Source: Escherichia coli
Lineage (GTDB): Bacteria; Pseudomonadota; Gammaproteobacteria; Enterobacterales; Enterobacteriaceae
NCBI RefSeq assembly: GCF_003018255.1
Contig: NZ_CP027440.1
DNA: 64,000 nt
Direction: 5' to 3' (one strand)
A program made the translations under genes and the position numbers. The notes under the pieces were generated by a model. That model saw only the letters and a list, made by a program, of their open reading frames with translations. It ran no database searches and had not been told where the DNA came from. Shown here one piece after another: positions 1-50,037 of the stretch (positions within the stretch are counted from its first letter, which is position 1; each line of letters begins with the position of its first letter).

Positions 1-1
1 G

Positions 2-4613: not shown

Positions 4614-5192
4614 CAGGGAAAGATCACGCAACGCTGCTTTTTTGTACTAAATAATTCGCACTAAATATTCAATAATTGAGATATTCCTTATTACCTAAAG
4701 CTGTTTTCCATTGCTTATACATGATCAAATACTCCTTACATAATTAAGGAGAACAAAATGGAACTTAAAAAATTGATGGAACATATTTCTATTATCCCCG
4801 ATTACAGACAAGCCTGGAAAGTGGAGCATAAATTGTCAGATATTCTACTGTTGACTATTTGTGCCGTTATTTCTGGTGCAGAAGGTTGGGAAGATATAGA
4901 GGATTTTGGGGAAACTCATCTCGATTTTTTGAAGCAATATGGTGATTTTGAAAATGGTATTCCTGTTCACGATACCATTGCCAGAGTTGTATCCTGTATC
5001 AGTCCTGAAAAATTTCACGAGTGCTTTATTAACTGGATGCGTGACTGCCATTCTTCAGATGATAAAGACGTCATTGTAATTGATGGAAAAACGCTCCGGC
5101 ACTCTTATGACAAGAGTCGCCGCAGGGGAGCGATTCATGTCATTTCTCGCGTCAGTCCTTGCGGGGAGCGGGCTTTCGTAATCTTGCCCTGA
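4614..5192 (+). mobile_element. Defective second H-rpt copy with large internal deletion
   Basis: Leader and first about 125 codons nearly identical to copy 1, then jumps directly to the last about 15 codons and 3' end of the element (junction near 5143). Confidence 0.7.
4758..5192 (+). pseudogene. Truncated yhhI-like transposase remnant (internal deletion)
   Basis: 144-aa ORF identical at the N-terminus to the 378-aa H-rpt ORF but lacking about 250 internal codons. Confidence 0.8.
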
Positions 5193-23809: not shown

Positions 23810-23894
23810 TGCGTTAGATGATGGCTATCTCACTCCAGTCAGAGCCACCAACTCAGGGCTGGAAAGTAAAAAACCGACGCAAAGTCGGTTTTTT
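23810..23894 (+). ncRNA. agrA: agrA-like small RNA (dinQ-homologous antisense repeat)
   Basis: Repeat unit sharing GCTATCTCACTCC with dinQ (antisense) and ending in terminator CCGACGCAAAGTCGG plus TTTTTT; ends approximate. Confidence 0.65.
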
Positions 23895-24043
23895 ACATCC
23901 GGATTCGGACAAGGCCTGGTACGGCAGCGACCCGATGAAAGTATATAAATCCTCTTTCACCAACATGTATAGCAAACTGTCCCTCCGCCAGCTGAAGAAA
24001 TCGCTAACGCTTGCAATGTTAGCCACTGGCTAATAGTATTGAA

Positions 24044-24128
24044 CCGTTAGATGTGGGCATTCTCACTCCAGCCAGAGCCACCAACTCAGGGCTGGAAAGT
24101 AAAAAACCGACGCAAAGTCGGTTTTTTT
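24044..24128 (+). ncRNA. agrB: agrB-like small RNA (antisense regulator of dinQ)
   Basis: Second repeat unit; carries GCATTCTCACTCC exactly complementary to dinQ 23558-23570; same terminator hairpin plus T7. Confidence 0.65.
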
Positions 24129-24201
24129 ACGTCCTGATTCAGACCTCCTTTCAAATGAATACCCAACTCAAAATTCACACCTATTACCTTCCTCTGCACT
24201 T

Positions 24202-26538: not shown

Positions 26539-26835
26539 TCAGGCAATTTTGCTATTTACGCAGCACTCCTCGCGTAAGAATTCAATTATCGCTTCCAGCA
26601 TTGCGTATTGCGAAACACACATCAGCGTTCGACTCTCACGGTTTTGTTTGACCAGCCCTACCGATACCAGTGCTGAAATATGGTGACTGAGTGTAGAGCC
26701 GGGTATCCCAAGCTGCTTTTGCAACTCACCGACCGGCAACCCTTGTTCCCCGGCTTTGACAAGATGTTTAAATATGAACAAACGGGTCGGGTGACCTAGC
26801 TCTTTCAGCGCTTTAGCGACTTCTTCCAACTGCAT
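26539..26835 (-). CDS. ArsR/SmtB-family transcriptional regulator with C-terminal vicinal cysteines
   Basis: wHTH signature GIPGSTLSHHISALVSVGLVK; C-terminus ...EFLREECCVNSKIA; start set at MQLEEVAKALKEL with SD GAGGGGG about 6 nt upstream (ORF track gives a longer 119-aa form). Confidence 0.75.
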   Translation of the reverse strand: MQLEEVAKALKELGHPTRLFIFKHLVKAGEQGLPVGELQKQLGIPGSTLSHHISALVSVGLVKQNRESRTLMCVSQYAMLEAIIEFLREECCVNSKIA

Positions 26836-26941
26836 ATGATCCCCCTCTGTCTGGTTGATATTTCGATAATACCAGAAATATCTTGATCTGAATTTCATTT
26901 CGATTATTCTGGAAATATAGATTTATTCAATGAGGTTATGT

Positions 26942-27943
26942 ATGAGTAGTTGGCTTGCGATGCTGCAAGATGCCACAGAGATGTTTGTGTTTCTCGCCGT
27001 CGAGCTTTCTTTGCTGTTTATAGTGATTAGTGCCGGTGTGAGCCTGATAAGACAAAAGGTGCCAGACCATAAAATCCAGCAGATGATGGGGGCAAGAAAA
27101 GGGAAAGGCTATCTCCTGGCTGCTCTGTTGGGAGCCGTCACCCCGTTCTGTAGTTGCTCGACAATCCCTATGTTACGTGGATTGTTATCAGCGAAAGCCG
27201 GGTTTGGTCCGACCCTCACTTTTTTATTTGTTTCCCCATTACTTAATCCCATTATCGTCGGGTTAATGTGGGTGACCTTTGGCTGGAAAGTTACCTTGTT
27301 GTATGCGATTATCGCCGCCGGCGTCTCCGTACTTGCCAGTATTATCCTCGATTCTCTGGGATTTGAACGTCATATCATTGCCAGTAAAAGCTCATCAGCA
27401 AATTGTTGTGCTCCAGCCAAAACTTCGCCGGGGACGACATATACGCCAATAAAAGTGAGTTGCTGTAGTCCAGCGGCTAAAGCCATTGAGAAACCTGTAG
27501 TAAACTGTTGCAGTACCAAAGCTGTGGTAAGTATTAATCCCATAAAACTAGCCACCAAAGATGCGTTGCAACAGTTTAAAGATGTACTGCCATATCTTTT
27601 GTTAGGGGTATTAATAGGCTCTTTTATTTATGGCTTTATTCCCTCAGAGTGGATTGCCGCTCATGCAGGGGCAGATAATCCCTTCGCCATCCCATTGAGC
27701 GCCGTTGTCGGTATTCCGCTATATATCCGGGCAGAGGCGGTTATCCCTCTGGCATCTGTTCTGATGACAAAAGGAATGGGTCTGGGAGCATTAATGGCAT
27801 TAATCATCGGCAGTGCCGGCGCAAGCCTGACGGAAGTGATATTACTTAAATCAATGTTCAGAATACCGATGATAGTTGCATTCCTGACGGTTATATTAGG
27901 TATGGCTATCTTGATGGGCTATTTGACTCAAATGCTATTTTAA
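26942..27943 (+). CDS. ArsP-like permease (DUF318/COG0701 family) with TPFCSCS motif and a cysteine-rich central loop
   Basis: Polytopic membrane protein; motif GAVTPFCSCSTIP; central loop with three CC pairs (NCCAPAK, SCCSPAAK, NCCSTK); start set at MSSWLAML preceded by GAGGT (ORF track starts 4 codons earlier). Confidence 0.7.
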   Translation: MSSWLAMLQDATEMFVFLAVELSLLFIVISAGVSLIRQKVPDHKIQQMMGARKGKGYLLAALLGAVTPFCSCSTIPMLRGLLSAKAGFGPTLTFLFVSPLLNPIIVGLMWVTFGWKVTLLYAIIAAGVSVLASIILDSLGFERHIIASKSSSANCCAPAKTSPGTTYTPIKVSCCSPAAKAIEKPVVNCCSTKAVVSINPIKLATKDALQQFKDVLPYLLLGVLIGSFIYGFIPSEWIAAHAGADNPFAIPLSAVVGIPLYIRAEAVIPLASVLMTKGMGLGALMALIIGSAGASLTEVILLKSMFRIPMIVAFLTVILGMAILMGYLTQMLF

Positions 27944-28523: not shown

Positions 28524-29747
28524 ATGTCAATTGACTTTACCCCATGTATGATAAATACATATCACGGCGATATTTATAACCGCACAACAGATACCGACAA
28601 TGTTAAAACACCAGACACACCGAAGTGGCCTTGCGATAATTGGGAAGAACAACAACCCATTAATTCCACATTCTCTGGAGAAGGATATACCTCTGATCAA
28701 TATGATTTAGCGCAATACCAACTTCAACAAATTAATGCGTGCCACACGAACACTACATATACAAATGCAGACTACTCAAAAGTTGTGGCTCAACTTGTAA
28801 GTCTTATTACTAACATTGAAACGATAAGTTCGACACAACTTACGCAACAGACACAATCAATACTTAATCAGATTAATAACATTAGATACGAAAAAAACAA
28901 AAGTGCTGAATATCGAATCATTGTTGTCGCTAATCCTAAACCCGACAAGGCAATCATAACTAAAATTAGCGTAGAAGAGGGAATACCAGTAAGATTCAGT
29001 GTCCAAACCATGTTTTCAGATACTAATTTTATTACTGAACAACGAGCTGACTTACCGACTAATATAAAAGATATTCAAAGCCTGTATCAAAAAATGACGA
29101 AGTTATATATTGAACACAGTGAAAATAAAAACAGGATGAAAGTCTTTGCTGGAACCAACTTTATTGATTTCAATGTGACAGGACAGGACCTTTCCGGGTT
29201 CGTTCTAACCTTGTCAAGGTTTTATTTCGAAGATCTACTTAATATAAATTTCACTGACGCAAATTTAGGTGACACTATTTTTTCACATAAAGAACACCCT
29301 ACCCCAAAATTATATAAAGACGAACAATATCTTGACAAACAAATCGAAGGTTTATTTTCAACATTATTAACCATTAATGACAACTTTTTACGAGCAAAAG
29401 CGGAAATTGCTTCGACAATAATTAAATTCTTAGAGGCCAGGATAACCAATATTTCATACAATGACATATTAAAATATCAGCAAGAATTCAAAAAACAATG
29501 TTATAAGCAAGTTAAAGCCTTTACGACACTCTCCCGATACAATAAAATTCAAACATGGGCAGAAATGTCTGAATATCAATTCGAAGTATTTCAATACGAG
29601 ACGCTTAACCCAAAAAAAATGTCATACGCACCTTATTTAAAGAGATCGCTACCTGATGAAAAAACTATAAATTATGGGGTGGAAATAGAAACACCAACTG
29701 GCAAAAGAATTCGCTTATTAAATCATTACCAGAATATAATCCCATAA
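28524..29747 (+). CDS. yhiS: YhiS-like hypothetical protein, intact
   Basis: 407-aa AT-rich ORF immediately upstream of slp; call rests on position and product size, not on motif recognition. Confidence 0.6.
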
Positions 29748-29992
29748 TATTGAACATTAGCACTTTATAATCATTGAATAAAAATAGATTTTATGTACCT
29801 TTAAAAAAAGGCTATTTTATGGGGCGATGGATACTCATGTCACGCCCCAAAATTAACAGAATTAAACTAAACAGAAGGGATATAAACATCAGACAGGTTT
29901 ACGTTACTATCAGGCATATCGCCTCAGAATCAGATGAAAACTATAAAGAAATATCTATTATGGTTTTAATATTTGTTGATAAGGATAGTAAC

Positions 29993-30559
29993 ATGAACAT
30001 GACAAAAGGTGCACTCATCCTCAGCCTTTCATTTTTGCTTGCCGCATGTAGTTCAATTCCGCAAAATATCAAAGGCAATAACCAACCTGATATTCAAAAA
30101 AGTTTTGTTGCTGTTCATAACCAGCCGGGGTTATATGTTGGTCAACAAGCGCGCTTTGGCGGGAAGGTTATCAACGTTATCAATGGCAAAACGGATACGT
30201 TGTTAGAAATCGCTGTATTACCGTTGGATAGCTATGCGAAGCCTGATATTGAAGCCAACTATCAGGGCCGACTGCTCGCCAGACAAAGCGGCTTCCTTGA
30301 TCCAGTGAACTATCGTAATCACTTTGTTACCATCCTCGGTACCATTCAGGGTGAACAACCTGGCTTTATCAATAAAGTCCCGTATAACTTCCTGGAAGTG
30401 AATATGCAGGGCATCCAGGTGTGGCATTTGAGAGAAGTGGTTAATACCACCTATAACCTGTGGGATTACGGCTATGGTGCATTCTGGCCGGAACCGGGCT
30501 GGGGCGCGCCTTACTACACCAATGCGGTGAGTCAAGTAACACCTGAGCTGGTCAAATAA
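29993..30559 (+). CDS. slp: Outer membrane starvation lipoprotein
   Basis: Start set at MNMTKGALILSLSFLLAACSS (lipobox LAAC), 188 aa; the ORF track's 261-aa form has an implausible N-terminal extension. Confidence 0.9.
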   Translation: MNMTKGALILSLSFLLAACSSIPQNIKGNNQPDIQKSFVAVHNQPGLYVGQQARFGGKVINVINGKTDTLLEIAVLPLDSYAKPDIEANYQGRLLARQSGFLDPVNYRNHFVTILGTIQGEQPGFINKVPYNFLEVNMQGIQVWHLREVVNTTYNLWDYGYGAFWPEPGWGAPYYTNAVSQVTPELVK

Positions 30560-30711
30560 CACCACCGAGAGATGCAGATGCTTTCTCAGCATCTGCATCA
30601 TGCATTACATCAAATTAATACACAGCCAGCTAACTATTATTATAAGCCCTGTCCTGTTAATTACCTTTGGCAAACTGATTATAAAGTTAATGTCCGCACC
30701 AGGAGTCGGTT

Positions 30712-31242
30712 ATGTTTCTTATAATTACCAGGGATACGATGTTCTTCACTGCGATGAAAAACATTCTGAGTAAAGGTAATGTCGTTCATATACAGAACGA
30801 AGAAGAGATCGACGTAATGTTGCATCAGCATGCCTTCGTCATTATTGATACATTAATGAATAATGTATTTCATTCTAATTTGCTCACTCAGATTGAACGA
30901 TTAAAACCTGTCCATGTGATTATTTTCTCTCCCTTTAATATTAAACGCTGCCTGGGGAAAGTACCGGTGACCTTTGTTCCGCGAACTATCACCATCATCG
31001 ACTTTGTCGCACTCATCAATGGCAGTTACTGCTCTGTGCCTGAAGCGGATGTGTCCCTTTCGCGCAAGCAGCATCAGGTTCTGAGCTGCATTGCGAATCA
31101 AATGACAACGGAAGATATTCTGGAGAAACTGAAAATATCGCTAAAAACGTTCTACTGCCATAAACACAATATCATGATGATCCTCAATCTTAAGCGGATC
31201 AATGAGTTGGTACGCCATCAGCATATTGATTATCTGGTGTGA
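30712..31242 (+). CDS. dctR: LuxR-family transcriptional regulator
   Basis: 176 aa with C-terminal HTH; position after slp. Confidence 0.85.
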   Translation: MFLIITRDTMFFTAMKNILSKGNVVHIQNEEEIDVMLHQHAFVIIDTLMNNVFHSNLLTQIERLKPVHVIIFSPFNIKRCLGKVPVTFVPRTITIIDFVALINGSYCSVPEADVSLSRKQHQVLSCIANQMTTEDILEKLKISLKTFYCHKHNIMMILNLKRINELVRHQHIDYLV

Positions 31243-31302
31243 ACGATTGATCAATATAAAGAGGCCCAGCAATAAATAGCCAGACCTCCCGTTAATTATA
31301 CG

Positions 31303-32331
31303 TTATGCAGTAACGACTTCCGGTATCAGCGAAGCAATTTGCTTACGCCATTGCGCTTGCTCCTGTTCGCCTTCTGTACGTTGACCATAAAGTTGCGCTA
31401 TCTGCGTACCATCATGGGCAAACAATTCCAGACTGGTTACGTAGCCATCGCTGGTCGGTTTACGGGTAACCCAGGCTTCAGCAATGCTCTCTTCTAATAG
31501 ATGAAGAGTAAACGTCGGGTTGAAAATATTCAGCCAACCTTTCATTGGCACCACTTTTTCTACCACACCAGTGAAAATCTGTACGCAGCCACGGTTGCCA
31601 ACAAACACCATGATTTCATTGCCATCCTGCTGTGCAGATTCAAGAATTTGCGCCAACGCACTGTTGGATACTTTGCAGGCCAAATCATCTGCCACCAGAT
31701 TGAACGCCTGTTGGCGCGTCAGGTTGTGGCGCTTGAGCAACGTAAAAAACTGATGAACGTCGGTCATCGCCCGCCACTCTTGCTCGACCACACTGGCATC
31801 GGCTCGCGTTTGAACAACTGGCGCATCAACGGCTTTTAACTCAAGCGGCATATTCTCATCGGCGATAAACCGTGCCAGAAGCTCACTCCATGCCGCCATA
31901 TCGGTATTGTCGGTGGCATAAACTTTTAGTAATGCATCGCCCTGATGATCAAAGAACTGAATACTCTGGCGTTCGCCACGAGTCGTATTTTCTTTAATGT
32001 GAAAAACACTGGCCCATTGATTGAGAAACAGACGCAAATCCAGCGCGCGTGGATTGAGGATCAATCCGGCATGTCCGTTCAAATGCTGGTTTGTGAACGC
32101 ACCAACTTGCTCATGGACTGCATATTCATTACGACAAATACATTTGGTCTCGCCAACACTTTCGAGCGCCGCCAGAATTTCACGGATATCGCCGCGCATC
32201 CGCCACGCATCGTGCGTGACGCGCGCAAATGCCAGTTCTGCTTCGCTAATATTCATTAAACCTGCGATGTCACGCGCGTACTTTCCGGGATTTTGTTCTT
32301 TTAACTCAAGCCAGCGTGTGTAGTGGTTCAT
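31303..32331 (-). CDS. chuS: Haem oxygenase / haem-degrading protein
   Basis: 342-aa ORF recognised as ChuS/HemS family; downstream of chuA on the same strand. Confidence 0.85.
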   Translation of the reverse strand: MNHYTRWLELKEQNPGKYARDIAGLMNISEAELAFARVTHDAWRMRGDIREILAALESVGETKCICRNEYAVHEQVGAFTNQHLNGHAGLILNPRALDLRLFLNQWASVFHIKENTTRGERQSIQFFDHQGDALLKVYATDNTDMAAWSELLARFIADENMPLELKAVDAPVVQTRADASVVEQEWRAMTDVHQFFTLLKRHNLTRQQAFNLVADDLACKVSNSALAQILESAQQDGNEIMVFVGNRGCVQIFTGVVEKVVPMKGWLNIFNPTFTLHLLEESIAEAWVTRKPTSDGYVTSLELFAHDGTQIAQLYGQRTEGEQEQAQWRKQIASLIPEVVTA

Positions 32332-32379
32332 TGTCTCTCTTCCTTCCAGATAAATGCCCCGAAATATCGGGGCAGATGA

Positions 32380-34362
32380 TTACCATTGATAACTCACGAA
32401 AATTTTTCCATTACGACCATCCTGTGGGATGCCTTGTGGCGACCAGTACTCTTTGTCGAAAGCGTTACCCAACACCAAAGTAGTGGTCATACCTTTGAGC
32501 GCCTGTTGTCCTTGATAACTGACGTAGAAATCATTCACGCCATAGCCTGGTTGTTTGCTGTAACTGCTGCTGATATGTGTTGAGCGATCGGCAAACGTAC
32601 CAACCCACCCAACAGAGAAGCCACTGTGAGCGATCGGAATATTCAGGGTGCTGGTAACGGTATCCGGGTTAATACTGGAGATATATTCGCCGGTATCGGT
32701 GTCTTTGCCGCGGGTACGGTTATAGGCCACATCAAGGCTAAACAGATCAGTGGTATATTTCGTCATCACATCCCAACCCCAGATTTTGGCGTTCGGGACG
32801 TTATACGACATAGTTGTCGCCGCCGCGAAATCGACGGTCGTGGAGATGTAATCCTTCGCTTTGGTATCAAAGTAGCTGGCTTTAAATTCCAGAGCATCAT
32901 TGGACAACATCAGGTCATCAAAACGCAGCCCAAAACCGTACTCCTGAGTTTCGTTAGTTTCCGGACGTAAGTTCGGGTTTGGCACCCAATAGTTGGTATA
33001 GAAGCGACCAATCGAGAAGTGCTTAGAATCGTTATACATTTCGCCCATCGTCGGGGCGCGGAATGCCTGAGCATATGAGCCAAATAACATCAGCCAGTTA
33101 GTCGGGTTGATAGTCATCCCCGCGCGAGATGACCATTTGTCGGCATCAACATCTTTGTAGCCGTCGCTGCTACCGCGATAACTGTCATAGCGGGTTCCGC
33201 CAAGCAGGGTAATCGGCAGATCGCGTAAGGTGATCTCATCTTGTAGCCAGCCAGAGCTAAAATCGATTTTTGCTTGCGGGAAGCCCGTCGTCGCGCCACC
33301 CGGATGTTGTTCCTGACGATAATACTCACCGCCATATGTCAGTAAGTGAGAAGCGAAACTGTCGGCAAATAGAGTGGAACGGTTCTCCAGCCTTGCTCCT
33401 TTTGTTATCTGTTCACGATACTCGCCGGAACTCCCCGTGTTTTGCGCATTAATACGGACTTCCGACCAGTAAATTTTTGCATCTGCATTTAACCAGTCGT
33501 TACCCTGCGGGGCGAGTTTATAAGAAAGCTGCGCATCGCGTTGAATTGTTGAACGATCGACCATCGGGTTGCTGCTATCAGAAGCTTCAACGGTCTGCGG
33601 ATTTTTTGGTTCACGCGCGTCGTTGTTGTAGTAACGCACTAAACCGCTCAGAGACTGAGCTGAATCAATTTGCCAGGTCCCTTTCGCCAGCATGTTATTA
33701 ATGGATTCGTCATTCGGCGCGGTTTCACCATTGCTCTGGCGTAAATCACCCCGATCGCGACTGGACCAGGCCACAATACCATCCAGATTTTCAGTTCGCC
33801 CAAACGCGCTCGCGCCTAATCCCAGGCTATGGTCCCCCGTGCCGCCAGTACCAAAGACACGAAAACCACTGCTTTGTCCTTCCTGCAATAAATCTTTTGC
33901 ATCGACCGTATCGTAGGAGATCACTCCACCCAGCGCGCCACTGCCATACAGTAATGCTGAAGGTCCGCGAACAATCTCAACACGCTTGATCAGCGCCGGA
34001 TCGAGAAAAGTGCCATTCAGGTGTCCGGTATCCGTTCCCTGGCGAACACCATCGACAAGAACCAGCACGCCGCGATGATCATAGCCACGCATATTTACAT
34101 CCTGACCGTTGGTTCGTCCGGTACCATCAAGAGTAATTCCAGGAACATGACGCAGCAGATCGGTGGCTGAAGTAGCCGTTTGATTTTCAGGAGCGGAAGT
34201 GTCGATGACGCTGACCATCATAGGCGCTTCGAAGGAACTACGGGCATTCCCCGTTGCCGTAACGGTCATGGTTTCAGTAGCAAAAGCAAACGTTGGCAAG
34301 GTGGCAGAAACAGCCAAAGCCAACAAACTCAAACGCAACGAGGTAAATTGCGGACGTGACAT
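32380..34362 (-). CDS. chuA: TonB-dependent outer membrane haem/haemoglobin receptor
   Basis: 660 aa; signal peptide, plug domain, C-terminal beta-barrel ending in aromatic residue (...YQW); SD GGAG 8 nt upstream of ATG. Confidence 0.9.
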   Translation of the reverse strand: MSRPQFTSLRLSLLALAVSATLPTFAFATETMTVTATGNARSSFEAPMMVSVIDTSAPENQTATSATDLLRHVPGITLDGTGRTNGQDVNMRGYDHRGVLVLVDGVRQGTDTGHLNGTFLDPALIKRVEIVRGPSALLYGSGALGGVISYDTVDAKDLLQEGQSSGFRVFGTGGTGDHSLGLGASAFGRTENLDGIVAWSSRDRGDLRQSNGETAPNDESINNMLAKGTWQIDSAQSLSGLVRYYNNDAREPKNPQTVEASDSSNPMVDRSTIQRDAQLSYKLAPQGNDWLNADAKIYWSEVRINAQNTGSSGEYREQITKGARLENRSTLFADSFASHLLTYGGEYYRQEQHPGGATTGFPQAKIDFSSGWLQDEITLRDLPITLLGGTRYDSYRGSSDGYKDVDADKWSSRAGMTINPTNWLMLFGSYAQAFRAPTMGEMYNDSKHFSIGRFYTNYWVPNPNLRPETNETQEYGFGLRFDDLMLSNDALEFKASYFDTKAKDYISTTVDFAAATTMSYNVPNAKIWGWDVMTKYTTDLFSLDVAYNRTRGKDTDTGEYISSINPDTVTSTLNIPIAHSGFSVGWVGTFADRSTHISSSYSKQPGYGVNDFYVSYQGQQALKGMTTTLVLGNAFDKEYWSPQGIPQDGRNGKIFVSYQW

Positions 34363-34651
34363 AGCGATTCTCCATGAGGAAAATAAAAAATGCTGGCTGC
34401 CTGGGTTAATACCGGGGTGGCTGGCGAAAAATAAATTTATTTAAAATTCAGAGCGATAATATTCGCCGGGTGAGTTTACAGGCGTTTATATCCCATGAAA
34501 TTGCCTGGTATCTCGGCAAATACGCAAAAGCACGCCCTCTTTGTCAGGCAAACCGATATGCCCCATCAGGAGTGAAGAGCGCTGTGCGTTACCCCTTGTA
34601 AATGATATGGCTTTGTTATCCATATGGCCGTATTTTGTTAAATGCAAACGT

Positions 34652-34670
34652 GATAATGAGAATTATTATC
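34652..34670 (-). promoter_or_regulatory. Fur box upstream of chuA
   Basis: GATAATGAGAATTATTATC, close match to the Fur consensus GATAATGATAATCATTATC; about 290 bp upstream of the chuA ATG, implying a long 5' UTR. Confidence 0.7.
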
Positions 34671-35003
34671 GATCAATTTTTTATGATCAAGCTTTTTTTT
34701 AACCGCCATTAACACAATAAACAGGGGGTTATGAAACTTATCCTGCGCCCTGGAAACCACTTTGCTTTTATGGTTATTCCCCCATGACCTCATCACTAAA
34801 CTTTGTCGTTAACAGTGATAATTTTCTCTTCTCTTTGCTCTGCAAGCCGCGATATCTCTGGGTTCTCAGCTTTTTCCCGCGCTGAAATTTAGTCGGTAAC
34901 AAGAACGTTAGCTGACGAAGCATCTTGATAAAAATCAAAAATAAATACGCTTGTAACGCCGTGCGTATTGAATCGACGGTTGTATTTCATATATAACTCA
35001 AAT

Positions 35004-35022
35004 GATAATCATGATCATTCTC
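35004..35022 (+). promoter_or_regulatory. Fur box upstream of chuT
   Basis: GATAATCATGATCATTCTC immediately upstream of the proposed chuT start. Confidence 0.65.
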
Positions 35023-35045
35023 AATTTGATAAGAGTTCTCATATT

Positions 35046-35960
35046 ATGCCAAGGATCATCACCAGGCCGTTTCTTTTTTCCCCACTGACGTTATGTATTT
35101 CAGCCGTGGCCTCTGCCGCGAAGACCGCGGTAAAACGAAAAAAATTGTTTACGGCAGTACTGGCTCTTAGCTGGGCTTTTAGCGTAACGGCTACCGAACG
35201 TATCGTGGTCGCAGGAGGATCGCTGACGGAGCTAATCTACGCGATGGGCGCTGGCGAACGCGTGGTTGGTGTCGATGAAACGACATCTTATCCACCAGAA
35301 ACCGCCAAACTGCCGCATATTGGTTACTGGAAACAACTCAGCAGCGAAGGCATTTTGTCACTTCGCCCGGATAGCGTAATTACCTGGCAGGATGCAGGAC
35401 CGCAAATTGTGCTCGACCAACTGCGGGCGCAAAAAGTCAACGTCGTCACTCTGCCGCGTGTACCAGCCACCCTTGAGCAGATGTACGCCAACATTCGCCA
35501 ACTGGCAAAAACGTTACAGGTTCCTGAACAAGGCGAGGCGCTGGTGACACAGATCAACCAACGCCTGGAGCGAGTACAGCAAAACGTGGCGGCCAAAAAA
35601 GCCCCGGTTAAAGCCATGTTTATTCTCTCCGCAGGCGGAAGTGCGCCACAGGTTGCCGGTAAAGGCAGCGTCGCGGACGCCATTCTTTCGCTTGCCGGAG
35701 CAGAAAACGTCGCTACCCACCAGCAGTACAAAAGCTACAGCGCGGAATCGCTGATTGCGGCTAACCCTGAAGTGATTGTCGTCACCTCACAAATGGTCGA
35801 TGGCGATATTAATCGGCTACGTTCTATTGCCGGAATTACCCACACTGCCGCATGGAAAAACCAGCGCATTATCACCGTTGATCAAAACCTGATTCTGGGA
35901 ATGGGTCCGCGTATTGCTGATGTCGTTGAGTCTTTACACCAGCAGCTTTGGCCGCAATAA
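35046..35960 (+). CDS. chuT: Periplasmic haem-binding protein
   Basis: Class III periplasmic binding protein sequence; start is uncertain. The ORF track begins at 34968, but that ATG lies upstream of the Fur box, so the second ATG at 35046 is chosen. Confidence 0.7.
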   Translation: MPRIITRPFLFSPLTLCISAVASAAKTAVKRKKLFTAVLALSWAFSVTATERIVVAGGSLTELIYAMGAGERVVGVDETTSYPPETAKLPHIGYWKQLSSEGILSLRPDSVITWQDAGPQIVLDQLRAQKVNVVTLPRVPATLEQMYANIRQLAKTLQVPEQGEALVTQINQRLERVQQNVAAKKAPVKAMFILSAGGSAPQVAGKGSVADAILSLAGAENVATHQQYKSYSAESLIAANPEVIVVTSQMVDGDINRLRSIAGITHTAAWKNQRIITVDQNLILGMGPRIADVVESLHQQLWPQ

Positions 35961-35979
35961 ATGGATTTAAATCAGACGA

Positions 35980-37317
35980 ATGAACACAAATAACACCCTG
36001 GATCTCACGCCACATTTTGCTTTAGACGGTGATCAGCCATTTAAAGACAGGCGCGCCATGATGCCGTTTCGTGGGGCCATTCCAGTTGCCAAAGAGCAAC
36101 TGACACAGACCTGGCAAGAGATGCTCAATCAAACGGTATCACCACGTAAGCGACTGGTTTATCTACACATTCCTTTTTGTGCGACACACTGCACGTTTTG
36201 TGGTTTTTATCAGAACCGTTTTAATGACGATGCGTGTGCTCATTATACCGACGCCCTGATTCGTGAAATAGAAATGGAAGCAGACAGCGTATTGCATCAG
36301 TCTGCCCCCATCCACGCGGTCTATTTCGGTGGCGGTACGCCTTCCGCGCTTTCAGCACACGATTTGGCCAGAATCATCACCACATTACGAGAAAAGCTGC
36401 CACTGGCCCCTGATTGTGAAATCACTATTGAAGGCCGGGTACTGAATTTTGACGCTGAGCGAATCGATGCTTGCCTTGATGCTGGAGCAAACCGCTTCTC
36501 AATTGGTATTCAGTCGTTTAACAGCAAAATCCGCAAGAAAATGGCCCGCACCTCGGATGGCCCAACCGCTATTGCGTTTATGGAAAGCCTGGTCAAACGC
36601 GACCGTGCCGCGGTGGTCTGTGACCTGCTGTTTGGTCTGCCGGGTCAGGATGCGCAAACCTGGGGAGAAGATCTGGCTATTGCCCGCGATATCGGTCTCG
36701 ACGGCGTCGATCTCTATGCGCTCAATGTCCTGCCCAATACACCGCTGGGCAAAGCCGTGGAAAATGGGCGTACTACCGTGCCCTCTCCGGCAGAACGTCG
36801 CGATCTTTACCTGCAAGGGTGTGATTTTATGGACGATGCCGGTTGGCGCTGCATCAGTAACAGCCACTGGGGCCGTACCACACGCGAACGCAATCTCTAT
36901 AACCTGCTGATTAAACAAGGTGCCGATTGTCTGGCCTTTGGTTCCGGAGCCGGCGGTTCGATTAATGGTTACTCCTGGATGAACGAACGCAATCTTCAGA
37001 CCTGGCATGAATCCGTCGCAGCAGGTAAAAAACCGCTGATGATGATCATGCGTAACGCCGAACGTAACGCGCAGTGGCGTCATACCTTGCAGTCGGGCAT
37101 TGAAACGGCGCGTGTACCGCTGGACGAACTTACGCCACATGCCGAAAAACTCGCGCCGTTACTGGCCCAGTGGCACCAAAAAGGCTTAAGCCGCGATGCG
37201 TCAACGTGTCTGCGGTTGACCAATGAAGGTCGTTTCTGGGCAAGCAACATTTTGCAGTCTCTTAATGAACTGATTCAGGTACTTAATGCGCCAGCAATTG
37301 CGCTTGAAAAACCATAA
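35980..37317 (+). CDS. chuW: Radical SAM haem-degrading methyltransferase (anaerobilin synthase)
   Basis: 445 aa with radical SAM motif CATHCTFC. Confidence 0.85.
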   Translation: MNTNNTLDLTPHFALDGDQPFKDRRAMMPFRGAIPVAKEQLTQTWQEMLNQTVSPRKRLVYLHIPFCATHCTFCGFYQNRFNDDACAHYTDALIREIEMEADSVLHQSAPIHAVYFGGGTPSALSAHDLARIITTLREKLPLAPDCEITIEGRVLNFDAERIDACLDAGANRFSIGIQSFNSKIRKKMARTSDGPTAIAFMESLVKRDRAAVVCDLLFGLPGQDAQTWGEDLAIARDIGLDGVDLYALNVLPNTPLGKAVENGRTTVPSPAERRDLYLQGCDFMDDAGWRCISNSHWGRTTRERNLYNLLIKQGADCLAFGSGAGGSINGYSWMNERNLQTWHESVAAGKKPLMMIMRNAERNAQWRHTLQSGIETARVPLDELTPHAEKLAPLLAQWHQKGLSRDASTCLRLTNEGRFWASNILQSLNELIQVLNAPAIALEKP

Positions 37318-37329
37318 CAGGAGTGATTT

Positions 37330-37824
37330 ATGAGCCATGTCTCGTTACAGGAATTTTTGAAAACGGAGCCAGACGGTACGCTGGAGGCGATCGCCGAACA
37401 ATACAACACCACGCTGCTGGAGGTAGTGAAAAATCTGCCCTCTCCGACTGTTGTGTCAGGTGATAAATTCGATACTGTCTGGGATACCGTCTGCGAATGG
37501 GGCAACGTCACCACGTTAGTACATACTACCGATGTAATACTCGAATTTAGCGGCGAACTGCCTTCGGGTTTCCATCGCCACGGCTATTTCAACCTACGCG
37601 GAAAGCACGGCATGTCCGGGCATATCAAAGCAGAAAACTGCACGCATATTGCCTTGATCGAACGTAAATTTATGGGCATGGATACCGCCTCTATTCTCTT
37701 TTTCAATAAGGAAGGCAGCGCAATGCTGAAAATCTTCCTCGGTAGGGATGATCATCGTCAGCTCCTGAGCGAACAAGTCAGTGCCTTCCATGCTCTGGCA
37801 GCATCGTTAAAGGAACACGCCTGA
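37330..37824 (+). CDS. chuX: Haem utilisation protein ChuX
   Basis: 164-aa ORF in the chuTWXY cluster. Confidence 0.8.
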   Translation: MSHVSLQEFLKTEPDGTLEAIAEQYNTTLLEVVKNLPSPTVVSGDKFDTVWDTVCEWGNVTTLVHTTDVILEFSGELPSGFHRHGYFNLRGKHGMSGHIKAENCTHIALIERKFMGMDTASILFFNKEGSAMLKIFLGRDDHRQLLSEQVSAFHALAASLKEHA

Positions 37825-38447
37825 TGACACCGTGGCTACTCTTTGGCGCAGGCGGAAAAGGTGTGGGTGCCAGAACGCTTGAACTGGCGCTGGCGGAACA
37901 ACGTCCGGTCGTTGCTGTCATTCGTCATGCCGATGCCGCCACGAAACTGGCGCAACAAGGCGTACAGGTTTTTACAGGCGACGCCTGTGATGCCAGCGTA
38001 GTCGCGGCTGCTTGCCGCGCAGCTGGCCCGGATGCGCTTATCATCTCAACAATGGGCGGAGCTCAGGATTATCTGGCGCACAGAACAGTGATTGACGAGG
38101 CCGAGAAAGCAGGCATCACACGCATGATTCTGGTGACGTCACTGGGATGCGGCGATAGCTGGCCGTTTTTATCAGAGCGGGCAAAGGCTGCGTTTGGTCA
38201 GGCGGTACGGGAAAAAACGCTGGCGGAAAGCTGGTTGCAAACCAGCCAGCTTGATTATGCCATTCTCCGCCCTGGCGGTCTGCTTGATGGTGCGGCAACG
38301 GGCAAAGCACAACGGATACAAAATCAGGAGTGTCATGGTTTTATTAACCGTGCTGATGTCGCCGCACATATCCATGAACTGGCAAATGCGCCAGCACTTA
38401 ACCAGCAGGTCTACAGTCTGATTGAACCGGACCTGAAACCGGCGTGA
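37824..38447 (+). CDS. chuY: NAD(P)H-dependent anaerobilin reductase
   Basis: 207 aa with N-terminal Rossmann-like glycine motif; start overlaps the chuX stop. Confidence 0.8.
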   Translation: MTPWLLFGAGGKGVGARTLELALAEQRPVVAVIRHADAATKLAQQGVQVFTGDACDASVVAAACRAAGPDALIISTMGGAQDYLAHRTVIDEAEKAGITRMILVTSLGCGDSWPFLSERAKAAFGQAVREKTLAESWLQTSQLDYAILRPGGLLDGAATGKAQRIQNQECHGFINRADVAAHIHELANAPALNQQVYSLIEPDLKPA

Positions 38448-38495
38448 TCCCCCGGCGCGGCATGTCCGCGCCGTAATGTCGTAACGGAGTTTTGC

Positions 38496-39488
38496 GTGCT
38501 CAAGGATTCACTCTCTTCCGCCAGGGTCTTTATGGGGCTATCACTATTATTGCTAGCTCTGGTGCTGTTTGGTGCCAGTCAGGGAGCGTTAAAGATCAGT
38601 TTTGATGCCCTTTTTGATGAGGAATACCGCGATATCTGGCTCAATATTCGTCTACCACGGGTTTTGCTGGCGGTGCTGGTAGGTGCAGCGTTGGCAACCG
38701 CCGGGGTAATTATGCAGGGGCTTTTTCGCAACCCAATGGCTGACCCTGGATTACTTGGCGTCAGTAGCGGTTCTGCATTAATGGTTGGCGTTGCTATTGT
38801 GCTGCCCTTCTCCTTCCCAGTGGTGCTGGTGCTCTATGAGCAAATGGTGTTTGCCATTGCCGGAAGTTTAGTGGTCTGCACCATCATTTTTCTCATCACG
38901 CAGCGCCATCGCGATGGCAGCATGATGCAATTATTACTCGCCGGTATCGCCATCAATGCCCTGTGCGGCGCAGCGATCGGCATCCTGAGCTATATCGGCG
39001 ATGAGCAGCAGCTACGACAACTCACATTGTGGATGATGGGCAATCTTGGACAGGCGCAATGGCCGACGTTATTGGTTGCCAGTTCATTCATCCTACCGGC
39101 CATTATCGCAACAACTTGTCTCGCCGGAACGCTGAATTTACTGCAGCTCGGTGATGAAGAAGCCCATTACCTCGGCGTGAACGTTAAGCGTAAACGCCAG
39201 CAATTACTGTTAGTGAGCTCACTGCTCGTTGGTGCCGCCGTATCGGTAAGCGGCATTATCGGCTTTATTGGCCTGGTGATCCCGCATCTGATTCGCATGA
39301 CTACCGGAGCAAATCACCGCTGGCTAATCCCTTGCTCCGCCCTCGCCGGAGCCTGTTTATTGCTGATGGCAGACACGCTTGCCCGCACGCTGGTACAGCC
39401 AGCAGAAATGCCCGTGGGATTATTAACCAGCCTGCTTGGTGGTCCTTATTTTATGTGGTTGATTCTGCGCAACCGGAGGATCACATGA
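38496..39488 (+). CDS. chuU: Haem ABC transporter permease (FecCD family)
   Basis: 330 aa, GTG start, polytopic. Confidence 0.85.
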
Positions 39489-40255
39489 TCAGCGCCCAGA
39501 ATCTGGTTTATAGCCTTCAGGGGCGGCGTCTGACTGATAATGTCTCGCTGACTTTTCCCGGTGGGGAAATTGTTGCCATTCTCGGCCCTAATGGTGCGGG
39601 AAAATCTACGCTGCTTCGCCAGTTAACCGGCTATCTTCAACCTGATAGCGGCGAATGTCGGTTGTTTAATAAGCCATTAAATGAATGGTCGATTACTGAA
39701 CTGGCGAAACACCGGGCCGTGATGCGTCAAAATAGCCACATGGCGTTTCCATTCAGCGTACAAGAAGTTATCCAGATGGGGCGGCATCCGCATCGCACTG
39801 GTAATCAGGATAATGAAACAGCACAAATAATGGCGTTATGTGACTGTCAGGCGTTAGCAAACCGCGACTATCGGCAATTATCCGGTGGTGAACAACAGCG
39901 CGTACAATTAGCGCGCCTGCTGGTGCAACTCTGGGAACCAACTCCCTCACCGAAATGGTTATTTCTTGATGAACCAACTTCGGCGCTGGATATTCACCAT
40001 CAGCAGCACTTGTTCCGTTTATTACGCCAGTTAGTTCACGAACGGCAGTTCAATGTTTGCTGCGTATTGCACGATCTAAATCTTGCCGCGCGTTATGCAG
40101 ACCGTATTGTATTAATGCAAAAAGGAAAGGTTATCGCAAATGGTAAACCACAGGACGTATTGACACAGCAGGCGCTGACCATGCTTTACGGCGCGGATAT
40201 TACCGTACTTAAAGATCCTGCCAACCATTCACCCCTGATCGTCCTCGATCATTAA
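39485..40255 (+). CDS. chuV: Haem ABC transporter ATP-binding protein
   Basis: Start set at [16 protein letters not shown] overlapping the chuU stop (ATGA); Walker [10 protein letters not shown] and signature LSGGEQQR. Confidence 0.85.
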
Positions 40256-40306
40256 AACCAACAGGAGTACCGCACTGGTACTCCTGCGAATAAATAACTA
40301 TACAGA

Positions 40307-40954
40307 TTAGCTAATTGAAACGCCTTTCACCCCTGCCATACCTTTTAATAATCGCAACAGATCTTCTATCGACGTCGTGGCATGAAGCTGGATATCAATG
40401 GCGACCACTTCATGATCTTCATTTTCCTGCAACGAAACTAAATCCGTTTTTATTTTTTGCTGCTTAAACCAGTCGAGCATTGATACCGTATTACCGTTCA
40501 CTAATGTCAGCTGTAAATGGTAATTTTTGTTCATCAGGCGGAAGGTTAATTGATGGAAGACTTCCAGCACCAGCAAGGTCATCACTGAACCATAAATACC
40601 CAGTTCGTACATACCGCTGCCAATAACCATACCAATGGCGGCGGTCACCCAGATATCCGCTGCCGTCGTCAGACCTACAATATTTTGGTTACGAACGAGA
40701 ATGTTACCTGCACCGATAAACCCGACGCCCGTCACAACCTGAGCAGCAATACGGCTGGGGTCCAGTCCGACGTGACCTAAAGACAGCACGTCAGCAAAAC
40801 CATATTTCGAAACAATCATAAACAGGGCGCTTCCCATGCCAATTAATACATGTGTGCGTAACCCTGCTCCTTTGCCGCGCATTTGCCTTTCCATGCCAAT
40901 AGCGCCACAGGCAATTACCGCAAGTATAAGTCGTATAATAAATTCTGCTGTCAT
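40307..40954 (-). CDS. yhiD: MgtC-family inner membrane protein
   Basis: Start set at MTAEFIIRLILAVIACGAIGMERQ (215 aa). Confidence 0.85.
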   Translation of the reverse strand: MTAEFIIRLILAVIACGAIGMERQMRGKGAGLRTHVLIGMGSALFMIVSKYGFADVLSLGHVGLDPSRIAAQVVTGVGFIGAGNILVRNQNIVGLTTAADIWVTAAIGMVIGSGMYELGIYGSVMTLLVLEVFHQLTFRLMNKNYHLQLTLVNGNTVSMLDWFKQQKIKTDLVSLQENEDHEVVAIDIQLHATTSIEDLLRLLKGMAGVKGVSIS

Positions 40955-41017
40955 ATAAAAATGCAAAAAGGAGCAGCAAGATGGCTCAACTTGCTACTCC
41001 TTTTTACTTGTACCTCA

Positions 41018-41344
41018 TTAATTCGGCAAGTCATTAGATGCTTGATTTTTGAAGGTATACAAATTTTTCTGCGGGTTTTTCTTGCAGTATTCGATCACTT
41101 TAGGAATTTGAGTGAGATCGGTTTCATTTAAAGTAACGGTATCGCCACCTTTATATACTGTTTCTTCATGCAGCATCCACCACGCAACTGGTGTCATTGC
41201 TTTTGGATTCAGATCAATAAATTCCTGGCAGGTCATATCTTTAGCGGATTCATTGGCTGCCAGCGCAGATTGTGCGTTCACCAGTGACAAAGCCGCTACA
41301 GCGCCCATAAAAATAAACGCTTTACGGAGAGATGAAATGTTCAT
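41018..41344 (-). CDS. hdeB: Acid stress periplasmic chaperone HdeB
   Basis: Start set at MNISSLRKAFIFMGAVAALSLVNA (108 aa). Confidence 0.9.
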   Translation of the reverse strand: MNISSLRKAFIFMGAVAALSLVNAQSALAANESAKDMTCQEFIDLNPKAMTPVAWWMLHEETVYKGGDTVTLNETDLTQIPKVIEYCKKNPQKNLYTFKNQASNDLPN

Positions 41345-41459
41345 TTTGTAACCCATTCAATATAGAGATTATATACAAACAGGAGGAATAGCTGCTTTTA
41401 AAGAAGATATTCCGGCCTGTTCAATATGCAAGGAAATACGATGTAACGCATTCCCGGAA

Positions 41460-41792
41460 TTACATATCTTTCTTAATTTTGTCCCATTCGCCTTTAACTT
41501 TATCTTTAAAGCTGGCTTTTTTATCCTGAGTACAAGCCTGAACGATAGCTGGGGTTACGGTTGCAATACCCTGAACATCTAAAACCGCATCTTCTGGTTT
41601 ATCTTTGTTGTTCAGTGCTTCAGCAAAACCAACTGCAGTTGGCTGGAAGGATTCGTCCACAGCCAGGAAATCTTCACAGGTCCAGGAGTTGACCGGTTTT
41701 TTGTTATCAGCTGCTTTTTGTGCATCCGCTGCATTGCTCACTACTGGCAGAAGAAGCAGACCACCAAGAATAACGCCTAATACTTTTTTCAT
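41460..41792 (-). CDS. hdeA: Acid stress periplasmic chaperone HdeA
   Basis: 110 aa, signal peptide then ADAQKAADNKKPVNSWTCEDFL. Confidence 0.95.
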   Translation of the reverse strand: MKKVLGVILGGLLLLPVVSNAADAQKAADNKKPVNSWTCEDFLAVDESFQPTAVGFAEALNNKDKPEDAVLDVQGIATVTPAIVQACTQDKKASFKDKVKGEWDKIKKDM

Positions 41793-42046
41793 CGTAATAT
41801 CCTCAACTATAAAGTGAAAGAGCCGTCACGAATCAATTTCGACACTGAGGTTATAACCTGGTTTTCTGTATATGTCATGTTGATGGAAAATATCAAAATC
41901 AGATATTTTTATTTCAATACAATGAGTTACAGACGCATCAGATACTGTAATTAGGAAATTTTTATTAAATCGACTGCATTCTTACACGCGTTTTTGGCAT
42001 AGATTGATAGCAGGGGATTTTCTTCTTAATTTTATAGGGTGGTTCT

Positions 42047-42619
42047 ATGTTATATATAGATAAGGCAACAATTTTGAAGTTTGATCTGGAGATGCTTAAA
42101 AAACATCGCAGAGCAATCCAGTTTATTGCCGTGCTGCTGTTTATCGTCGGGTTGCTGTGTATCAGTTTTCCGTTCGTCTCTGGCGACATTTTAAGCACAG
42201 TAGTGGGTGCATTATTAATCTGCTCGGGCATTGCGCTTATTGTCGGGCTATTCAGCAACCGCAGTCATAATTTCTGGCCGGTATTATCCGGTTTCCTCGT
42301 CGCAGTCGCCTATTTATTGATCGGCTATTTCTTCATCCGCGCACCAGAGCTGGGCATTTTTGCCATTGCGGCATTTATTGCCGGTTTGTTCTGTGTGGCA
42401 GGGGTTATTCGCCTGATGAGTTGGTATCGTCAGCGTTCAATGAAAGGCAGTTGGCTACAGCTCGTTATTGGTGTGCTGGATATCGTCATTGCCTGGATAT
42501 TCCTTGGTGCTACGCCGATGGTGTCGGTAACGCTGGTTTCCACACTGGTGGGAATTGAACTGATATTTAGCGCCGCCAGTCTGTTCAGCTTCGCCAGTTT
42601 GTTCGTTAAAAAGCAATAA
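42047..42619 (+). CDS. hdeD: Acid-resistance membrane protein HdeD
   Basis: 190 aa multi-TM protein divergent from hdeAB. Confidence 0.9.
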   Translation: MLYIDKATILKFDLEMLKKHRRAIQFIAVLLFIVGLLCISFPFVSGDILSTVVGALLICSGIALIVGLFSNRSHNFWPVLSGFLVAVAYLLIGYFFIRAPELGIFAIAAFIAGLFCVAGVIRLMSWYRQRSMKGSWLQLVIGVLDIVIAWIFLGATPMVSVTLVSTLVGIELIFSAASLFSFASLFVKKQ

Positions 42620-43945: not shown

Positions 43946-44283
43946 TCAGGACATAAGCAACTGAAATTGATGGCTGGCATGACGAGGGATGCAGATGCTG
44001 ATTTCATTACCCCCGGTGATTACTAAAGGAGAGGCGAAAACGACTTTATTCCCCTGGTATATGTATCCACCAGTAGAACCCTTCGTTGCCCGAATGCTGG
44101 CAGGAACTGTTGGCAGAACGGCAACATTTTTTTTGTCGTTGACCTCACCATGTCGATCACTGTGCCTGTATCCCACCTTACTGGCTGACAACCCCACTAT
44201 GCCGCTGGTCTGTAAATCCCTCATATCTCTCCTCGCGCGCAATTTAAAGAACCGTTATTTCTCAAGAATTTTCAGGGACTAAA

Positions 44284-49670: not shown

Positions 49671-49916
49671 GACTATCCCTTATATTTCATTGCTGCGATT
49701 ATTTCAATTTCAGTATACTAATGAAATGATGCCTGACTGTTTCTTAGCGCAAAAACTGCCAGATTTGGTAGGACCAAAATTTATCCACAAAGTAGTTTTG
49801 CATAACAGTTAATTGATAATAAGTAAATGCAACACGAATATATTTTCGCACAGCGTATAGCTTATGTTTATAAAAAAATGGCTGATCTTATTTCCAGTAA
49901 AAGTTATATTTAACTT

Positions 49917-50021
49917 ACTGAGAGCACAAAGTTTCCCGTGCCAACAGGGAGTGTTATAACGGTTTATTAGTCTGGAGACGGCAGACTATCCTCTTCCCGG
50001 TCCCCTATGCCGGGTTTTTTT
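49917..50021 (+). ncRNA. gadY: GadY small RNA, cis-antisense to the gadX 3' UTR
   Basis: Sequence ACTGAGAGCACAAAGTTTCCCGTGCCAACAGGGAG... matches GadY as recalled and ends in terminator CCCGG-N10-CCGGG plus TTTTTTT. Confidence 0.8.
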
Positions 50022-50037
50022 ATGTCTGAGTAAAACT

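Follow-up and report, generated by a model that had tools for sequence, protein, structure and literature searches.

The segment from 31244 to 40301 of the window, the 64-kb stretch of Escherichia coli DNA analysed here, is the canonical Escherichia/Shigella chu (shu) haem-utilisation locus, O-island 140 of O157:H7, at its standard site between dctR and yhiD (probability about 97%), and no observation speaks against this identification. The locus is already known and ordinary, and nothing in it departs from the descriptions available since the late 1990s.

Identity and extent of the chu locus

Alignment with K-12 gave a span of 9,058 bp, in which chuS and chuA lie on the minus strand and chuT, chuW, chuX, chuY, chuU and chuV on the plus strand. 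An earlier note, made from the sequence alone, had placed the limits at 31250 and 40300, within a few bases of these values. It had also described the cluster as complete and intact and as located in the acid fitness island (AFI), and both descriptions held. All eight reading frames are open, with lengths divisible by three and no internal stops, and the encoded proteins have the same lengths as those of Sakai and CFT073, with 0 to 10 substitutions per protein. ChuA, ChuX, ChuY and ChuU are identical to the CFT073 proteins, and the other four carry 1 to 10 conservative substitutions. The location is supported by alignments, by annotation and by the published finding that the AFI of both O157:H7 Sakai and EAEC 042 contains O-island 140 with chuA (PMC10540162). 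E. coli JNE23-011 matches the window with 100% identity from 29000 to 42500, and the RefSeq annotation of that record names exactly these genes, with the chu genes alone annotated within the locus.

Curated family-model cut-offs were exceeded by ChuA, ChuW, ChuX and ChuV. The NCBIfam search returned no model above its cut-off for ChuS, ChuT, ChuU and ChuY, and therefore these four were assigned by their identity to PDB and RefSeq entries. The solved structures of ChuS, ChuA/ShuA, ShuT, ChuX and ChuY are matched near-perfectly by the proteins of the window, and catalytic residues, ligand residues and motifs are kept.

The left flank is formed by dctR (yhiF; 30712-31242, plus strand), an intact and annotated reading frame of 176 aa in the AFI with 97.2% nucleotide identity to dctR of K-12. 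The right flank, also part of the AFI, is the annotated yhiD (40307-40954, minus strand) of the MgtC/SapB family, whose product reaches 398 bits against NF007431 (cut-off 214). The alignment of the window with Sakai, CFT073 and K-12 puts the left junction at 31243/31244, where K-12 homology stops one base past the dctR stop codon. It resumes at 40301/40302, five bases before the yhiD stop codon, and this right junction is common to Sakai, CFT073 and the divergent Escherichia loci. Both junctions thus fall in the dctR-chuS and chuV-yhiD spacers, as the earlier note had proposed. The alignment to K-12 that it had asked for also confirms that K-12 lacks the island: where the window has 9,058 bp, MG1655 has an unrelated spacer of 35 bp, whose resemblance to the island is not significant, its score being reached by 171 of 200 shuffles.

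Gene content of the two units

The minus-strand unit begins with chuA (32380-34362), which encodes the TonB-dependent outer-membrane haem/haemoglobin receptor of 660 aa. It scores 588.3 bits against TIGR01785 (cut-off 316.85), 1446.9 bits against the ChuA structure 9DHE and 1430.3 bits against the ShuA structure 3FHH. The protein carries His86 and His420 of ShuA (mature numbering). Downstream of chuA lies a haem-degrading gene of the HemS/ChuS family, chuS (31303-32331, minus strand), named 'hematinate-forming heme oxygenase ChuS' in RefSeq. Its cytoplasmic product of 342 aa matches the ChuS structures 4CDP and 1U9T with 755 and 752 bits over residues 1-341 and retains His193 and Arg100. The two genes are described as bicistronic in the literature (PMC9002310). 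Their 48-nt spacer contains a G+C-rich hairpin (32355-32374, minus strand) that a scan for terminator-like structures reported with eight pairs, six of them G-C, followed by TTTATCTGGA; it is a candidate partial terminator or mRNA stabiliser. A second, terminator-like hairpin follows chuS (31259-31290, minus strand), with a 12-bp stem including G-U pairs and then a U-rich tail. The fold of the surrounding minus-strand region (31240-31305) has an energy of -20.5 kcal/mol (z = -3.97; 1 of 200 shuffles as good), and this hairpin may act as a terminator.

The plus-strand unit starts with chuT (shuT; 35046-35960), which is annotated in RefSeq and encodes the periplasmic haem-binding protein of 304 aa and matches the ShuT structure 2R7A with 541 bits over residues 49-304. 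The exact start of chuT is uncertain because the ribosome-binding site of the ATG at 35046 is weak and because 48 residues, an unusually long N-terminus, precede the mature ShuT sequence. Next is chuW (hutW; 35980-37317), whose product of 445 aa is a radical-SAM methyltransferase of anaerobic haem degradation (570.6 bits against TIGR04107, cut-off 400) with a CxxxCxxC motif at residue 67. It is followed by chuX (hutX; 37330-37824), encoding a cytoplasmic haem carrier of 164 aa (209.8 bits against TIGR04108, cut-off 110; 353.9 bits against the ChuX structure 2OVI), and by chuY (37824-38447), encoding an anaerobilin reductase of 207 aa that matches the ChuY structures 5GUY and 5FFQ with 451.5 and 446.4 bits. 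The anaerobic module ChuW-ChuX-ChuY is thus located within the transporter operon, in the order T-W-X-Y-U-V.

The transporter consists of the binding protein ChuT, the permease ChuU and the ATPase ChuV. The haem ABC transporter permease gene chuU (shuU; 38496-39488) has a GTG start and encodes 330 aa identical to ShuU/ChuU of CFT073 (WP_000910402.1); its matches to BtuC/FecCD-type permeases all fall short of the equivalog thresholds, which is normal for a paralogue. The ATPase gene chuV (39485-40255) encodes 256 aa with a Walker A motif GPNGAGKS and an LSGG signature (395.5 bits against NF010068, cut-off 261). The overlaps reported in the earlier note are present, with 1 nt between the chuX stop and the chuY start (TGATG) and 4 nt between the chuU stop and the chuV start (ATGA), and they suggest translational coupling of both gene pairs. 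Between the convergent chuV and yhiD, a perfect 10-bp hairpin (40262-40286), reported with 11 pairs in the scan, folds with -17.9 kcal/mol (z = -5.78; none of 200 shuffles as good) and is likely a bidirectional terminator.

Regulatory sites

Fur boxes had been proposed in front of both units, and two sequence matches were found at these places. They are the only matches in the 64 kb, with 0.02 expected by chance per window. The predicted box of the chuA promoter, GATAATGAGAATTATTATC (34652-34670), agrees with the Fur consensus at 17 of 19 positions (2 mismatches) and overlaps both the -10 hexamer of a promoter-like site (34690..34662, minus strand) and the inferred transcription start. That of the chuT promoter, GATAATCATGATCATTCTC (35004-35022), agrees at 16 of 19 positions (3 mismatches) and lies 24 nt upstream of the chuT ATG. 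Both are invariant across five Escherichia sequences, and the block around the chuT box is 93-99% conserved across Escherichia.

A FourU RNA thermometer of the shuA/chuA type (34360-34391, minus strand) covers the Shine-Dalgarno sequence and the start codon of chuA. It matches the full-length Rfam model RF02597 with 60.1 bits (gathering score 58, E = 6.8e-7); in its fold, UUUUCCU pairs with GGAGAAU, and the block is 100% conserved in comparison with Sakai and CFT073. In Sakai, chuA is transcribed from position 4,391,862, which is 291 nt upstream of the ATG, and its control comprises Fur, the FourU thermometer, sRNAs and Rho (PMC9002310). Mapping this start onto the window via a gap-free alignment would give chuA of this strain a 5' untranslated leader of 291 nt (34363-34653, minus strand).

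Age of the locus at the dctR/yhiD site

The earlier note had called the island inserted. The word implies a direction, and the data do not establish gain or loss; in this strain the locus is not a recent insertion. No tRNA was found in the window and no terminal direct or inverted repeats at the locus, and going by annotation the locus contains no integrase. The G+C content of the island is 0.47-0.55, with an E. coli genome average of about 0.51, and it is the AT-rich AFI flanks (0.31-0.45) that deviate instead. The features by which mobile islands are recognised, namely an integrase or transposase, a tRNA target, direct repeats and deviant base composition, are therefore missing. Furthermore, three divergent Escherichia lineages with 85-97% nucleotide identity hold chu at the same site, and across them the divergence of the island is about equal to that of the flanks. 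Since the shared site and flank-like divergence coincide with a lack of mobile hallmarks, the locus is old at the dctR/yhiD site in Escherichia and inherited together with its flanks, and not a recent acquisition in this strain.

One explanation, to which we give even odds, goes further and regards chu as ancestral at this site, with K-12 and the other members of phylogroups A, B1 and C being chu-negative by secondary loss or allelic replacement, so that 'inserted' would describe the wrong direction. It agrees with the observations above, including the identical site and junctions in the window, Sakai, CFT073 and the three Escherichia species representatives. It is also consistent with the occurrence of chu in phylogroups B2, D, E, F and G and its absence from A, B1 and C (PMC8281228). 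The locus is present in 2,234 of 5,421 complete E. coli genomes, and across about 3,175 genomes the K-12-type empty site with its 35 bp is nearly uniform, which is what one event would produce. Loss is demonstrable in the L007 lineage, which kept only chuA-chuS and lost chuTWXYUV by deletion. However, the 35 bp of K-12 are unlike the island, and a simple deletion would not create them. A separate chu-negative lineage of six genomes (N96 type) has a 36-bp filler, diverged but homologous to that of K-12, which suggests that the empty allele itself is old. Moreover, chuA-chuS homologues of other Enterobacteriaceae lie in a different context and architecture, and the locus must therefore have entered the AFI at some point.

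Another possibility, which we consider rather doubtful, is that the dctR/yhiD site carries an ancient two-allele polymorphism of Escherichia, chu being present or absent, in place of a plain insertion or deletion. An old empty allele would then have reached phylogroups A, B1 and C by homologous recombination and made them chu-negative without any deletion. Of the two alleles concerned, the one with the island occurs, with a divergence like that of the flanks, in lineages down to 85-90% nucleotide identity, and the empty one has at least two diverged homologous versions, the 35-bp and the 36-bp type.

Proposed function and lineage

For the canonical chu locus identified here, the mechanism can be drawn from the established knowledge of these proteins, from which we infer expression, regulation and haem use in this strain. 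Under iron limitation, Fur would leave the two operators, allowing transcription of the divergent chuAS and chuTWXYUV transcripts. The FourU hairpin over the ribosome-binding site would melt at host temperature, and only then would ChuA be translated. ChuA would obtain haem from host haemoproteins and bring it through the outer membrane with the help of TonB, ChuT would carry it through the periplasm, and ChuU with ChuV would pump it into the cytoplasm. There, the porphyrin ring would be opened and the iron released by ChuS with oxygen and by ChuW, ChuX and ChuY without oxygen. It is very improbable that the cluster has instead decayed or lost its function, as it has in some lineages of Shigella or Escherichia: partial loss is known in relatives such as L007, but here all eight frames are full length and free of stops, the proteins equal those of CFT073 or differ conservatively, and neither the key residues nor the two regulatory regions are damaged.

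The cluster matters as annotation only. As the earlier note had suggested, and in agreement with the phylogroup distribution cited above, it places the strain in a chu-positive lineage (phylogroup B2, D, E, F or G), and its alleles are closest to those of the B2-type CFT073. It also predicts that the strain can draw iron from host haem, which in extraintestinal and enterohaemorrhagic E. coli is recognised as a trait of fitness and virulence.

Comparison with known systems

The hemRSTUV/hmuRSTUV systems of Yersinia, Citrobacter, Enterobacter and Kluyvera resemble chu in their receptor and HemS, which are homologous (66-88% identity), and in their overall transport logic, which combines a TonB-dependent receptor with a periplasmic binding protein and an ABC importer. 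In contrast to chu, they form one co-directional operon without chuWXY, except in Yersinia, where homologues lie upstream, and their chromosomal context differs. A locus of this Yersinia/Enterobacter type can be dismissed. Identities of 80-88% do link ChuA and ChuS to the receptor and HemS proteins of Citrobacter, Enterobacter and Kluyvera, but these genera have receptor-hemS-hmuT-hmuU-hmuV in one direction without AFI genes nearby and an HmuT only 31-36% identical to ChuT, and the gene order of the window, two divergent units with chuWXY, refutes it.

The likeness to the shu locus of Shigella dysenteriae type 1 (shuS, shuA, shuTWXYUV) applies at the level of proteins (ShuA 3FHH, 1430 bits; ShuT 2R7A, 541 bits) and of the Rfam shuA thermometer, which is present in the window. 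Among the closest known systems are also those of Sakai (ECs_4379-ECs_4387) and of UPEC CFT073, and the comparison with O157:H7 and CFT073 that the earlier note had recommended found the same eight genes, order, strands, dctR/yhiD junctions, Fur boxes and thermometer. The differences are allelic only: gene by gene, nucleotide identity is 94-99% with Sakai and 98-100% with CFT073. In the central part of the chuA leader (34444-34635) the window resembles Sakai (93.8%) but not CFT073 (71.5%), and in chuT-chuV it resembles CFT073. Hence the locus of the window combines known alleles in a recombinant mosaic.

Gene content and integrity of the chu locus

The analysis was based on an ORF list of the window and a megablast search against 5,426 complete E. 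coli genomes, among which E. coli JNE23-011 is 100 % identical across window 29000-42500. The RefSeq annotation of that genome gives the order slp, dctR, chuS(-), chuA(-), shuT/chuT(+), hutW/chuW(+), hutX/chuX(+), chuY(+), shuU/chuU(+) and a haem ABC ATPase gene, chuV(+), followed by yhiD(-), hdeB, hdeA, hdeD, gadE and mdtEF. In the window, chuS (31303-32331) and chuA (32380-34362) lie on the minus strand, and chuT (35046-35960), chuW (35980-37317), chuX (37330-37824), chuY (37824-38447), chuU (38496-39488) and chuV (39485-40255) on the plus strand. All eight ORFs are in frame and free of internal stops, and each is as long as its counterpart in O157:H7 Sakai and in the UPEC strain CFT073. The earlier note had described chuS-chuA and chuTWXYUV as complete and intact, and this description is borne out.

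ChuA, ChuX, ChuY and ChuU show no difference from their CFT073 counterparts, while the remaining chu proteins carry 1-10 substitutions. NCBIfam models were exceeded at their curated cut-offs by ChuA (TIGR01785, 588 vs 317), ChuW (TIGR04107, 571 vs 400), ChuX (TIGR04108, 210 vs 110) and ChuV (NF010068, 396 vs 261); no NCBIfam model scored over its cut-off for ChuS, ChuT, ChuU or ChuY. PDB matches were found for ChuS (1U9T/4CDP, structures of the same protein), ChuA (ChuA 9DHE and ShuA 3FHH), ChuT (ShuT 2R7A), ChuX (2OVI) and ChuY (5GUY/5FFQ), and ChuU was assigned because of its identity to CFT073 ChuU. His193 and Arg100 of ChuS are kept, as are the ShuA positions His86 and His420 in ChuA, and a CxxxCxxC motif in ChuW and Walker A and LSGG motifs in ChuV were found; these residues and motifs are functionally important. 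An alternative chuT start closer to the signal peptide was considered, but codon 29 is GTA and no start codon, and the annotated ATG was retained.

Regulatory elements

The 683-bp chuA-chuT spacer contains the only two Fur-consensus matches of the 64 kb, compared with 0.02 expected by chance. These predicted Fur boxes lie on the chuA side (34652-34670) and, at 35004-35022, 24 nt before the chuT start codon, in agreement with the proposal that Fur boxes precede both transcription units. The former shares bases with the -10 hexamer of a promoter-like minus-strand site and also, by gap-free alignment, with the window equivalent of the Sakai chuA transcription start, which has been mapped 291 nt ahead of the start codon (PMC9002310). 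The shuA/chuA FourU thermometer was detected by Rfam above the gathering score at 34360-34391 on the minus strand, and its fold pairs a U-run with the Shine-Dalgarno sequence. The reported control of chuAS involves Fur, the thermometer, sRNAs and Rho (PMC9002310).

Stop and start codons overlap as TGATG at chuX/chuY and as ATGA at chuU/chuV. Thus, the overlaps noted earlier are present, and the translational coupling derived from them is compatible with these arrangements, which are no proof of it. Strong hairpins close both ends of the locus, one after chuS (31259-31290, minus strand) and one between chuV and yhiD (40262-40286). In the 48-nt chuA-chuS spacer, a G+C-rich 8-bp hairpin (32355-32374, minus strand) is followed by TTTAT; the operon is described as bicistronic, and this hairpin could serve as a partial terminator or have a part in processing or stability of the transcript. 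The RfaH ops element GGCGGTAG is absent from the chu region, and the only four copies in the window sit elsewhere. An 18-codon ORF in the chuA-chuT spacer (34732-34788, plus strand) with a good ribosome-binding site was rejected as a gene because its start and stop codons vary in divergent Escherichia loci and it falls in the least conserved block of the spacer.

Junctions and the empty site

Alignment to K-12 MG1655, where the gap between dctR and yhiD is 41 bp, places the junctions in the dctR-chuS and chuV-yhiD spacers, as had been anticipated. Similarity to K-12 stops one base past the dctR stop codon (31243/31244) and returns five bases ahead of the yhiD stop codon (40301/40302). The claimed absence of the island from K-12 was likewise verified, since an unrelated 35 bp stands there in place of the 9,058 bp of the window. 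In Sakai and CFT073, with which a comparison had been suggested, junctions and gene order agree with those of the window. Among the 5,421 complete E. coli genomes with a match, the island is found in 2,234 and the empty site in about 3,180.

A second type of empty site, with a 36-bp filler that is about two-thirds identical to the 35 bp of K-12 and hence homologous but diverged, occurs in E. coli N96 (locus L087, 3131-3168) and five other complete genomes; all six are chu-negative and belong to another lineage, the N96 type. This filler folds as a 9-bp hairpin, and the flanks of these genomes resemble chu-positive strains (about 97 % identity) slightly more than K-12 (about 95 %). Because a diverged homologous filler exists in this lineage, the empty allele also looks old.

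Age of the locus and possible directions of the event

The chu locus lacks all the usual signs of a mobile island. No tRNA genes were found in the window, no terminal direct or inverted repeats at the locus, and no integrase in its annotation. The G+C content of the island is 0.47-0.55 compared with 0.31-0.45 in the flanks within the acid fitness island (AFI), so that the AT-rich part is the flanks.

When a single genome of each bacterial species was scanned with ChuS and synteny was then mapped by tblastn, chu was located at exactly the same site in three non-K-12 Escherichia representatives. Nucleotide identities to the window per gene are 89-96 % for the island and 85-94 % for flanking genes in E69, 89-93 % and 90-95 % in SCPM-O-B-8794, and about 95-96 % and about 95-97 % in MOD1-EC7003. 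As island and flanks are about equally similar at a shared site, both have long been inherited together. On these identities, the locus is no recent insertion in this strain.

Loss of the island from the K-12 lineage was considered as well. Local alignment of the 35-bp filler to the island gave no sign of a deletion scar, the best score of 11 being equalled by 171 of 200 shuffles. When only 240 bp of the island ends were used, 14 of 500 shuffles equalled the score, and this marginal match was set aside. The event separating this strain from K-12 may have been either a gain or a loss, and the word "inserted" in the earlier note names one of these two directions.

In MOD1-EC7003, chuA-chuS is kept and chuTWXYUV is lost (the equivalent of window 34793-40298); the deletion scar bears an 82-bp ERIC-like repeat, and the chuA leader contains an insertion of a second, inverted ERIC-like copy (about 120 bp).

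Allelic mosaic

The central chuA 5' leader (34444-34635), to which Hfq, CyaR and Rho sites have been assigned (PMC9002310), is 93.8 % identical to Sakai and only 71.5 % to CFT073, whereas chuT-chuV (35046-40255) matches CFT073 at 98-100 % and Sakai at 94-98 %. By these identities, the chu locus is an allelic mosaic. Two very different leader haplotypes therefore circulate, with a recombination breakpoint in the spacer. Identity to JNE23-011 is 99.88 % across 1-30011 and drops to 99.13 % across 40211-64000, with small indels. The window is not from JNE23-011 itself, and these values suggest a recombination boundary somewhere to the right of the chu locus. Annotation transfer from JNE23-011 by coordinates is approximate outside 29000-42500.

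Other features of the window

Between arsC and a yhiS-like gene, window 26539-27943 encodes a 98-aa ArsR/SmtB-family regulator on the minus strand and a permease of 333 aa, a distant relative of SO_0444/SaoE-type efflux transporters. This pair is missing from K-12, Sakai and CFT073 but present in about 2,222 of 5,421 complete E. coli genomes, and is thus a common variable segment. The yhiS-like hypothetical gene (28524-29747) lies where the sequence is very rich in A+T (G+C 0.31-0.35); it is annotated by RefSeq as frameshifted in the near-identical genome (28524-29640), forms an uninterrupted ORF of 407 aa in the window, and is split by IS5 in K-12. Rfam matches comprise two tandem AgrB-type antisense RNAs beside dinQ (23814-24130), where RefSeq has a 71-aa hypothetical CDS in a related genome, ES205 downstream of gadE (44063-44134) and GadY (49914-50026), all standard K-12-like features here. 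Window 1-5160, with coordinates transferred approximately from the 99.9 %-identical JNE23-011 record, holds the end of an rhsC element, an Rhs fragment, ISAs1/ISEc1-family transposase genes (one partial) and internal repeats of 470-530 bp.

Comparison with known systems

The chu system is already known. O-island 140 with chuA sits inside the AFI of O157:H7 Sakai and EAEC 042 (PMC10540162), haem genes are counted among the AFI genes in STEC (PMC9144400), and phylogroups B2, D, E, F and G are chu-positive while A, B1 and C are negative (PMC8281228). In view of these descriptions, the earlier note identified a known system correctly: the observation is confirmed and the interpretation supported, apart from the unproven direction that "inserted" implies. 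The shu locus of S. dysenteriae was compared through the PDB protein sequences of ShuA and ShuT.

Citrobacter, Enterobacter, Kluyvera, Buttiauxella and others encode ChuA/ChuS homologues with 66-88 % identity. Unlike in Escherichia, hmuTUV trails the receptor and ChuS homologues co-directionally in these genera, chuWXY is lacking and AFI genes are not nearby. Across these loci, Yersinia included, HmuT shares 31-36 % identity with ChuT, HmuU about 60 % with ChuU and HmuV about 50 % with ChuV. Compared with these relatives, the Escherichia chu locus looks as if it was assembled from two modules with different histories.
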